A stretch of DNA of 42,406 bases from a virus (taxonomy: Duplodnaviria; Heunggongvirae; Uroviricota; Caudoviricetes), in the IMG/VR virus record IMGVR_UViG_2534682160_000015, positions 1 to 42,406 of that record. One strand, 5' to 3'. The position numbers are program-made. Shown in pieces: positions 6,001 to 9,000 of this stretch. Within the stretch, counting starts at the first letter, position 1; the number at the start of each line of letters is the position of its first letter.

Positions 6001-9000
6001 GAAAGGCACGTAAGAGGTGTTCACTGCTTCTAAAATTGCTATACTATTCATGTTGGTTTTTCTCCAAGGATTTACCGACAACCGAAGCCCTGACTGTTAC
6101 CGCAGTTGGGGCTTCAACTTTTCACTTCTTTAAAGTGCCTACCTTCTACAGTTGCTCTGAGATAAAAATTCTTATCTTTACCGTTTAGTGCTTCCCAAGC
6201 ATCAACAATGCACTTATTACAGATGTGGACTTCTCGATAACCAATAGCTTTCCTGTCAATATTAGTGAACATAACAGCTTCTTTATCTGTCAATGTGGAT
6301 GCATGACAGAAGTCGCAATCTATATAAGATACCTTCATACCGTTATCCCCTCTCTCTTCAGGCTGTCCATCACTCGCTTGTAAATCTCAGAGTTAACAGA
6401 TCGCCCGTTCTCTTCCGCCACCTTACGCACCAAATCAAATACTTCTTTAGGCCACCGCAAATTGAACTGCGGCATTTTGCTCATTCCTTTCATATTCACC
6501 TCACAATATAGGTCCACCGTGGACCTATTGAGAATATAGTAGAGTGCTTCTATCATGTCAATACACTAACTTGGGGTGATGGCATGGCTAGAGACGATCC
6601 GCACTTTAACTTCCGTATGCCTTTGGAAGTAAGAGAAAAATTGAAATTAAGAGCAGAGGCTAACGGAAGGTCAATGAACTCTGAGTTATTACAAATCGTT
6701 CAGGATGCTCTCTCAAAGCCATCATCAATTGTAGGCTATCGAGACGAAGCTGAGCGAGTCGCGGATGAGCAATCTGACGTTGTTAAGAAGATGGTCTTTG
6801 AAACGCTGAAAAATATTTATAGCAAAAGTAAGTTATAGGCTTATGACGTACAGTTAACCATATCGATATTGGCTCGCGTGATGACAAATGAAAAAAAGCA
6901 ATGGACTCACATTAAAACTTGACGGAACCACCCCTGGCCAGCTGTCAATGGCTAAGTTGGTCAAGTATATGTCTGCTCTCGTAGATCTATACGGTTCTGC
7001 AGATTCTGTTCACTTCGACTGTGTAAGTGAAGGATCGGCTGACTTAAATGCATGGGTCGATAATGATATTTGTTATAACGCTGTCATAGCAAGGGCCTCT
7101 CTCTCAGCCAAAGAGAAATCACCTGCGTATCAAAAAATTGTTAATTTACTGGAACATGATGGTTTTTCAGCGAAACTACTCGGACGAAACCACTCAACCA
7201 TTATCGCATTCCCGCGAGTAAAAAAGGAACCAATCCCTTTACTCATAACAAAAACGTCAGAAGTTCAAGGAAGGCTATACAGTGTTGGCGGAAAAGACAA
7301 CTCAATACCTGTGCGTATTGAGGGAGCCAACGGTGAAACATTCAAGTGCGAGGCAACCCCTGATTTGGCGGCAGCTCTTGGGTCCCATCTATTCAAATAT
7401 ATTAGGGTTAAAGGAGATGGGTGCTGGGAAAAAAAGAACAACAAATGGGAGCTAAAGAAACTAAAAATAACTTCATTTGTATTGCTCAAAAAATCATCAC
7501 TCAAGGATGCTATTAATGCTATCAAGCAAGTTCCTGGAGATCAGTGGTCCGAGGAACGCGATGTTGATTCAATCCTTAGGACTCTGAGGAAGATAAATTG
7601 CGAGTAATTTTAGATACCAATATTCTGGTATACCTACTATCAGATATAGAACACGATTATAGATTATCTGACCCTATACTTGGTTCTGAGATTCCAGATG
7701 CCAAAAGAAGAGCAGAAGCTCTTGTTGATCGAATAGATAACAAGAACGGGACAATCATCGTTCCAACTCCTGTATTGGCGGAGTTTTTAGTTGGAATCCA
7801 TAAAGATTACCAACAAGAAAAACTGAATGTTATCAAATCGTTATCGTGCTTCGAAACTGTATCATTTGATGAGTTGGCTGCTATTGAATGCGCATCGATA
7901 CCAACATTAAAAGAATTAAGGAAAATTAGCACAGAAGGTACAGCAAACAAAATTAAGTTTGACAGACAAATAATAGCAATTGCAAGAGCAATTAATGCTG
8001 ACGAGGTATGGACTCATGATAAGGGAGTGTTTGAGCGTTGCAAAAGTCTCAATATTCCTGTGTTCACATTATCATCAATAGAACCAATTCCGGTTCAAAG
8101 TCTCATGGAGTTCTTACACGATTCAGACGATCAGAGATTACACTAAAATATAATTTTTATGCATCCGTGATAATTACATCCGTCACGGATACATAAAGCT
8201 ATAGCCAAAAGTGGACAAACCTTTATCTCACTCCAAACCATCTGGTATCCTGCTCAAAACTAAGGAGGTTGGTGTGTTTGGTATATTAACGAGAAGCAAG
8301 ATAAAAAAATTAAGGGCAAAACTCGCCGAAACACAAAAACTGGCTTCACATTTTTACAAAATGAAATACGACGCTGAAGAGCGTGCATTCGTTGAGTTAT
8401 GCGATTTATCTATTCGTATGGGAGTAGAGCCAGATGTAGCGGCAAAAACTCAACAAGGCATTGATATACTTGCAGATGTTGTTTTAAACAGGCAATATGC
8501 GTTTTATCTAAACGAGAAGGCCATTCAGATTTACTCTCAAATCTTCCTCCTAGAAAAAAGAAGAGGAACTCACGATCGAGAAGAGTGGTTAAATGAAGTT
8601 GTTAAAAAATCTGGCTGGGAAGTTGTTTCATCAGAGCTACCTCTTATTTGTGCTGATTTAATCGAAGAGGCAAAAGAGCGTCTATCCGATGGCTAAACGA
8701 ATCCATCCGTGGATTACTAATTACTCCAGCTCCATTCCGCTTAGCGATGCCACAATCCCAGCCCTCGCTAAGCGCTGAAACTCTTCGTTTCCGACGGTAT
8801 CACGTATCGCTTTTACAGCAGCTTTATTTGCCATAAATCTGCGTTCCGCCGCCGCTAATGCACCATCACTTGCCCCAACATTAACTGCCTTTGTTGCCTC
8901 TTGGACAGCCTTTTCAATCGCGTAACGACTACTGCGGGATGCAGCTAACTTTTCTATCGTCCCTTTAGCTATAGATCCAGAAACAGCCCCCACAACACCG

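Follow-up and report, generated by a model that had tools for sequence, protein, structure and literature searches.

What is the function of three small genes carried between mnt and gene 16 of an Escherichia coli P22-like prophage, and do they form a single system? The question is raised by the IMG/VR virus record IMGVR_UViG_2534682160_000015, which was analysed over its whole stretch of 42,406 nucleotides (termed here as the window). In P22, the annotation places sieA between mnt and gene 16, as the first-pass annotation of this DNA had stated; in the window, this interval holds gene 1, which encodes a partner protein, gene 2, which encodes a PIN-domain nuclease, and the orphan gene 3. The first-pass annotation had read the three as one undescribed PIN-nuclease cassette in the sieA slot. 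The analysis reveals that genes 1 and 2 (6888-8146) are a strict, conserved two-gene unit, and that gene 3 is separate from it. A defence or abortive-infection role for the pair, as originally proposed, is the most plausible function suggested by the sequence, and comes from computation rather than experiment.

Pairing and spread of the partner and PIN genes

Partner loci were collected from E. coli genomes, contig look-ups and 41 IMG/VR viral contigs. The PIN gene lies directly downstream of the partner gene, on the same strand, in all 60 loci and in four further distant loci (64/64). The genes upstream of the distant PINs of Marinobacterium and Binatia are homologous to gene 1 (hhalign, 99.8-99.9%). 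The junction is an identical 10-nt overlap in every Enterobacterales copy; elsewhere, the genes are separated by a gap of 0 to +3 nt or overlap by 4 or 14 nt. The pairwise identities of partners and PINs correlate across 28 representative pairs (r=0.957), a value reached by 0 of 1,000 label permutations. Shared phylogeny contributes to this correlation, which shows that partner and PIN are co-inherited without partner swapping. The coupling of genes 1 and 2 proposed at the outset is thus borne out.

The pair ranges from Enterobacterales to Binatia, and tblastn against isolated phages identified distant copies in the Pseudomonas phages Ostro and Pacha_bin_1. For the context count, partners were dereplicated at 90% identity into 25 clusters. 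In 16 of these, a prophage repressor precedes the pair on the same strand at a distance of 24-1455 nt. The repressor is a CI-type S24 protein in Pseudomonas, Providencia, many IMG/VR prophages and the isolated phage Ostro; others include a 128-aa HTH_3 repressor divergent from Cro/YdaS-YdaT, and Mnt in the window. Other prophage copies are present between tail genes I and J, or by integrase, tail-fibre, tailspike or lysis genes. The non-prophage copies are lone insertions, which are found with Fic and an insertion sequence (IS) in Pectobacterium, an Mrr-like nuclease in Marinobacterium and IS1595 in Binatia, and elsewhere by a 1,400-aa DEAD/Helicase_C/MZB protein or the atp operon; one even separates ftsI from murE within the dcw cluster.

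Individual copies also deserve mention. The ftsI/murE copy belongs to soil metagenome lineages and follows the orientation of the dcw operon, with the PIN at 7001-7528 and the upstream gene at 6251-7000; for a nuclease cassette, this is an odd site. IMGVR_UViG_2791355159_000004 (74 kb) carries two divergent copies of the pair ~11 kb apart, with 70% and 57% identity to gene 1; one is situated between tail genes I and J, and the other follows a CI-like repressor. A DUF4145 protein (5177-5854) separates cI from the pair in Pseudomonas syringae-group prophages, so that two cargo units share the repressor-distal position. In E. coli ST131 Ecol_AZ146 (10578-12557), as in the ST131 copies generally, the gene 20 homologue is cut short by an inserted ISEc52. 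The ST131 prophage is probably defective through ISEc52, and still retains the mnt-PIN-gene 3 cargo at 99.3% identity.

Gene 2 matches the Pfam PIN family PF01850 with E=4e-10, above the curated cut-off, which agrees with the domain assigned from the sequence at first sight. The acidic residues picked out at that stage fared unevenly: Glu62 (PVLAEF) and Asp141 (THD) are invariant across the family, as is Asp6 (MRVILDTN), and the aspartate of ‘NADE’ is not conserved. The third catalytic aspartate is Asp122, which belongs to a family-specific KFDRQ motif and had been missed. In the predicted model, the catalytic tetrad Asp6/Glu62/Asp122/Asp141 is intact and the fold is VapC-like; the nearest folds are toxins of toxin-antitoxin (TA) systems. 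The 182-aa protein further carries a loop inserted at ~residues 15-34 and is extended at its C terminus. Its score is 27 bits, against NCBIfam VapC cut-offs of 140. The PIN family extends to Marinobacterium and Binatia at ~30% identity.

The partner has 239 aa and, as first described, is predicted to be soluble, with no hydrophobic segment found. Its model comprises an alpha/beta domain without an assigned fold (residues 1-112, the N-domain), an OB-fold (residues ~118-199) resembling those of SSB, the protein that binds single-stranded DNA, and of RPA, and a low-confidence helical, disordered tail (residues 201-239) with a conserved arginine, Arg234. No Pfam domain was detected in the query or in 62 family members, and no Pfam, NCBIfam or PADLOC model matches the family. 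A word-indexed search returned 58 clusters of homologues, all unnamed, from Enterobacterales and Pseudomonas. An exhaustive profile search returned 1,550 clusters at 50% identity with E<=1e-3, a lower bound for the family, and 296 with E<=1e-30; nearly all are 230-260 aa long and match over the full length. The partner is too large and too conserved for a mere labile plug. Searches of the PDB found no sequence relatives of genes 1, 2 or 3; profile matches to designed Kelch proteins were short, repeat-like and non-specific, and were rejected.

Gene 3, the sieA position and the organization of the locus

The distribution of the genes in E. coli was obtained by megablast against 5,426 complete genomes. 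The full 1,961-bp region covering genes 1-3 is present in 19 genomes, whereas the query for genes 1-2 finds 33 and that for gene 3 finds 30. The pair occurs with a different third gene in 14 genomes, exemplified by MLI121 with an unrelated 75-aa gene. Gene 3 occurs with other upstream cargo in ~11 genomes, including a Panacea-domain protein in UMNK88 and a P63C-domain protein in Ec15103, and outside E. coli no copy of the pair is accompanied by it. Gene 3 is therefore distributed independently of the pair, an outcome that the first-pass annotation had itself named as refuting the cassette.

The breakpoint between the two units was located by alignment. A block of ~35 nt is invariant, being 100% identical in the window, MLI121, epsilon34 and JEP4, while the DNA flanking it on both sides is unrelated; it ends exactly on the GTG start codon of gene 3. 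Its counterpart in P22 (1329-1362, minus strand, of the P22 stretch) has one mismatch, comprises the sieA leader, Shine-Dalgarno (SD) sequence and GTG start, and abuts the annotated sieA promoter. P22 itself has two compartments here: orf59a lies in the mnt operon, which is closed by a terminator, and sieA has its own promoter and adjoins gene 16. The breakpoint at the sieA leader and start, together with these two compartments, places gene 3 in the sieA position and the PIN pair in the mnt-operon compartment. The mnt-gene 16 interval is thus two independent cargo compartments: the pair sits at the site of P22 orf59a, and the sieA reading frame has given way to gene 3 exactly at the start codon. 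The ‘sieA slot’ of the first-pass annotation holds for gene 3 and not for the PIN pair, and the three-gene cassette was ruled out by the distribution and the breakpoint at the gene 3 start codon.

We still consider a single three-gene system with gene 3 as a functional component, and regard it as highly improbable. In its favour, the genes are neighbours on one strand, no terminator is predicted between them, and 19 genomes carry them together; against this stand the 14 genomes with another third gene, the ~11 with gene 3 beside other cargo, its absence outside E. coli, and the mosaic breakpoint exactly on its start codon.

Gene 3 has three near-identical clusters among 5.8 billion, and gave no Pfam, PHROG, NCBIfam, PADLOC or PDB match and no tblastn match in isolated phages. 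No hydrophobic or transmembrane-like segment was found in it, unlike SieA and other alleles of that slot. When the cassette was compared with isolated phages by megablast, only the boundary block and the gene 16 end matched. We also note that the block precedes unrelated genes in P22-like phages, namely sieA, hkcB-like genes, one encoding a membrane protein of 75 aa and, here, the 140-aa orphan. The block resembles a conserved mosaic linker, behind whose fixed translation start exclusion-type genes are swapped. The mnt-proximal cargo varies likewise: a Panacea-domain protein in UMNK88, a P63C-domain protein in Ec15103, KilA/Rha with a C2-like repressor in JEP4, and gp15 in epsilon34. This marks the compartment as a diverse cargo hotspot worth mining, in keeping with the prophage cargo position recognized initially.

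The features of the locus are summarized in Table 1.

Table 1. Coordinates of the cargo genes and associated elements in the window.
Feature	Position	Strand	Description
Pmnt-like promoter	6528..6556	+	TTGAGA-17-TATCAT, from consensus scan
mnt	6584..6838	+	Arc/Mnt-family repressor, 84 aa; Pfam Arc 5.7e-27 and Repressor_Mnt 4.8e-13
Gene 1 (partner)	6888..7607	+	239 aa, basic, isoelectric point 9.15
Gene 2 (PIN)	7598..8146	+	VapC-type PIN-domain nuclease, 182 aa, acidic, isoelectric point 5.13, TTG start
AT-rich inverted repeat	8156..8197	.	15-nt arms, 93% complementary, 12-nt loop; directly past PIN stop codon
Mosaic boundary block	8243..8276	+	TGGTATCCTGCTCAAAACTAAGGAGGTTGGTGTG, invariant, ~35 nt
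Gene 3	8274..8696	+	Orphan 140-aa soluble protein, GTG start, sieA position
Gene 16 homologue	8721-10844	-	gp16 DNA-transfer protein by PHROGs

The order of genes is tailspike, ant, sar RNA, arc (minus strand), mnt (plus), genes 1-3 (plus) and the gene 16 homologue (minus), which upholds the description of three plus-strand reading frames opposite to the virion genes. A Pfam scan of the window proteins names Ant, Arc, Mnt and PIN. The low GC content of the insert was also correctly perceived: genes 1, 2 and 3 have 41.9%, 36.6% and 38.3%, compared with 46.2% for the window. The TTG start of gene 2 and its 10-nt overlap with gene 1 were confirmed, with GAGG 8 nt upstream; the RefSeq/PGAP annotation of near-identical E. 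coli prophages gives the same coordinates for genes 1 and 2 and starts gene 3 at the GTG at 8274. The strong SD predicted for this gene is present as AAGGAGG (8262-8268), 5 nt before the GTG. A longer mechanical reading frame from 8211 was rejected, as it begins too early by both RefSeq/PGAP and the SD.

The Pmnt-like promoter overlaps a divergent Pant (6561-6533, minus strand) and adjoins a Mnt-operator-like palindrome at 6508-6528 with a perfect 10-nt inverted repeat (ATAGGTCCAC/GTGGACCTAT); the arrangement matches that annotated in P22 and epsilon34. The predicted Pmnt, Pant and operator palindrome are intact in the window, and Pmnt is the presumed promoter of an mnt-gene 1-PIN transcript. 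Co-transcription is suggested because no plus-strand terminator was predicted between mnt and gene 3; minus-strand terminator-like matches within the cassette number 4 against 2.1 expected, which is about chance. Since the promoters and operator appear intact and no terminator intervenes, expression of the pair from Pmnt in the lysogen is plausible. The inverted repeat past the PIN gene accompanies the pair in E. coli, is kept in the MLI121 variant with a different gene 3, and may mark the 3' end of their transcript or act as a regulatory element.

Further features were observed in the surrounding DNA. The sar antisense RNA (6052-6119, plus strand; Rfam RF00262, 97 bits) overlaps the start of ant, and the immI regulatory circuit looks intact given this position. 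Between arc and ant is a 74-aa open reading frame (6114-6338, minus strand), annotated as hypothetical in E. coli relatives, which weakly matches a ClpX-type C4 zinc finger (E=0.0015, below cut-off); P22 and epsilon34 have no gene at this site, and their arc and ant are adjacent with sar alone between. Two tRNA genes lie side by side at 26182-26334 (minus strand; Rfam, 60 and 55 bits).

Proposed function and alternative explanations

The VapC-type fold, the partner-first overlap, the autonomous scattering and the repressor-linked position are our reasons for viewing the pair as a TA-like conflict module. That it is a lysogen-expressed, TA-like abortive-infection or exclusion module is, in our judgement, about an even chance. 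In the resting lysogen, the partner would bind the PIN and hold it inactive, probably via the C-terminal tail with Arg234; an arginine in a disordered tail suggests occlusion of the active site, by analogy with FitA and FitB. Superinfection would either supply a phage-made ligand for the OB-fold and/or the N-domain or lead to loss of the partner. Candidate ligands are single-stranded DNA (ssDNA) intermediates of replication or recombination, RNA, or a phage SSB-type protein; the modelled OB-fold suggests that a nucleic-acid or SSB-type cue is read. The freed, presumably toxic PIN would then cut tRNA, rRNA or mRNA, so that translation stops before the invader matures. A more specific proposal makes the partner the type of a new and widespread class of sensor-antitoxins, whose OB-fold and N-domain detect phage ssDNA, or SSB on ssDNA, and release a VapC-type PIN; this is conceivable though doubtful. 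If it is true, temperate phages carry a portable, repressor-linked nucleic-acid alarm whose protein clusters, at least 1,500 in number, span Gammaproteobacteria to Binatia and lie outside every curated family library.

Several observations weigh against a defence module of this kind. The structural matches of the partner OB-fold have only 5-20% identity, proteins and sugars are also among the ligands of OB-folds, and the tail plug is proposed by analogy. The partner is devoid of the DNA-binding domain that defines VapB antitoxins, and the partner of DS-5, a validated two-gene PIN system, is not an antitoxin (PMC13092281), so the antitoxin role may be wrong. Some distant copies are located among housekeeping genes with no defence neighbours, the pair is rare in E. 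coli (33/5,426 genomes), and PADLOC-DB v2.0.0 gave no match for genes 1-3 at E<=1. The computational prediction of defence described below comes from a tool, DefensePredictor, that draws on genomic context and is biased towards PIN-like proteins; of its predictions that were tested, 55% failed validation (PMC13092281).

Other accounts share part of this evidence. The pair could be an obligate two-subunit nuclease, in which the OB-fold partner recruits the substrate or activates the PIN and the complex cuts invading ssDNA or RNA, the PIN alone being inert and non-toxic. Strict pairing and co-divergence suit such a complex equally well, the partner is large and basic with a nucleic-acid-type OB-fold, and deletion of the DS-5 partner abolishes defence without unleashing toxicity (PMC13092281). 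We nevertheless find it rather unlikely: DS-5 is homologous to neither protein (hhalign probability 0.1% for the partner and 3.6% for the PIN, the latter over the first beta-strand only), the nearest folds of the PIN are TA toxins, and gene order, overlap and scattered lone insertions, one of them in the dcw operon, are typical of TA cassettes. Another account is a plain addiction module that stabilizes the prophage or islet in the population and has no anti-phage role. The VapC-like toxin, the lone insertions amid housekeeping genes, and the ST131 copy kept at 99.3% identity in an IS-hit, probably defective prophage are in its favour. Addiction, however, has no need of the same-strand, repressor-adjacent bias seen across unrelated prophages (16/25 clusters), a simple labile antitoxin would be far smaller and less elaborate than the partner, relatives hold exclusion genes in the slot, and DefensePredictor scores the PIN as defensive; we deem this explanation unlikely.

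The repressor linkage would also be explained by a phage-lifecycle factor, RNA-processing or linked to ssDNA, that tunes the lysis-lysogeny switch or induction. CI or Mnt adjoins the pair in most prophage copies, and DNA damage could in principle be sensed through an OB-fold of the ssDNA type. But the pair is also found between tail genes, by integrase or lysis genes and at non-prophage chromosomal sites, only 33 E. coli genomes have it, and sister prophages carry other cargo in the same position. Given the varied sites, the rarity and the alternative cargo, the pair is therefore dispensable and context-independent, and a lifecycle role is improbable.

The window PIN protein is exactly WP_001263856.1, which Table S10 of DefensePredictor (Science 2026, PMC13092281) lists in ‘uncharacterized_clusters’ with a mean log-odds of 6.81 (range 3.95-8.01) against a strict cut-off of 4, and without homology to known defence proteins. 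The label given there is ‘Predicted novel defense gene’, and the protein is outside the 94 transcription units assayed, 45% of which were validated (PMC13092281). A full-text literature search on the three accessions found no citing paper in main texts, and found the PIN accession in that Table S10 alone. The first-pass term ‘undescribed’ thus holds insofar as no named family applies, and fails insofar as the protein had already been predicted as a defence gene. The PIN/OB-fold pair is widespread, uncurated and computationally flagged as defence. The main uncertainty over its novelty is Brenes & Laub 2025, a study of defence systems in E. coli prophages that is reported to have validated one with a PIN protein.

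The pair is a good experimental candidate among many, with the OB-fold partner as its one unusual feature. If it defends lysogens, it would extend the immune repertoire of prophages by a common, unannotated PIN system, its SSB-like OB-fold would be a type of sensor domain not described before for VapC-family toxins, and it would provide a tractable model of how TA-type effectors recognize infection. The size of the partner/PIN family merits a Pfam or DefenseFinder model. The presence of the module in ST131 and other clinical E. coli could affect the host range of phage therapy, and the invariant sieA leader and start codon are a simple handle for mining exclusion genes swapped behind the block.

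Comparison with known systems

The failure to match a named system, stated at the outset, persisted: PADLOC, Pfam, NCBIfam, PDB, DS-5 and SieA comparisons were all negative. Sixty-two partners gave two isolated matches in PADLOC-DB v2.0.0 with E~0.01, and 37 PINs gave sporadic matches with E>=4e-4. SieA shares the mnt-gene 16 interval, and gene 3 begins at the conserved sieA leader and start codon. In contrast to genes 1-3, which have no hydrophobic segments, SieA (164 aa) has three, and identity was rejected on this ground and on BLASTP values of E=6.8 and E=15.

DS-5 (WP_021513008.1 and WP_021513009.1) is a validated two-protein PIN defence system of E. coli, and requires both the PIN catalytic residues and the partner (DefensePredictor, PMC13092281). 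Like the present pair, it has the partner first and the PIN second and is found in E. coli accessory DNA. The proteins differ in size (166 and 376 aa compared with 239 and 182 aa), the partner in DS-5 has a DUF5830/AcrIF4-like zinc ribbon rather than an OB-fold, and identity was rejected by the hhalign values given above.

VapBC and FitAB are type II TA systems. Gene 2 shares with them the PIN toxin fold with its four conserved acidic residues, the partner gene lies upstream and overlaps or abuts the toxin gene as in VapBC (tight junctions in 64/64 loci), and both are small mobile two-gene cassettes. The tails of VapB and FitA plug the active sites of VapC and FitB, in the latter case with Arg68 of FitA, and the partner tail with its conserved arginine could do likewise by analogy. 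The partner is nonetheless unlike a classical VapB, as had been remarked: it has 239 aa instead of the ~70-90 aa of an antitoxin, and in place of an RHH, AbrB, HTH or PHD domain it has the N-domain and the SSB-like OB-fold. The PIN, in turn, departs from VapC with its loop and C-terminal extension at 182 aa and falls far under the NCBIfam VapC cut-offs.

As in lambda RexAB and other repressor-operon defence genes, the accessory, replaceable cargo directly follows a prophage repressor gene on the same strand, and cargo so placed would be made in the lysogen; here, Mnt is 50 nt upstream with no predicted terminator between. RexAB is membrane-depolarising, whereas the pair is a predicted soluble nuclease with no sequence or structural relationship to it. 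DARNA (PD-T7-3) is a single HEPN protein that forms dodecamers, and shares no PIN, OB-fold or homology with the pair (no PADLOC match). Phage ssDNA with SSB activates its RNase, whereby tRNAs are cut and infection is aborted, and such an ssDNA-activated tRNase is a mechanistic precedent for the logic proposed here.

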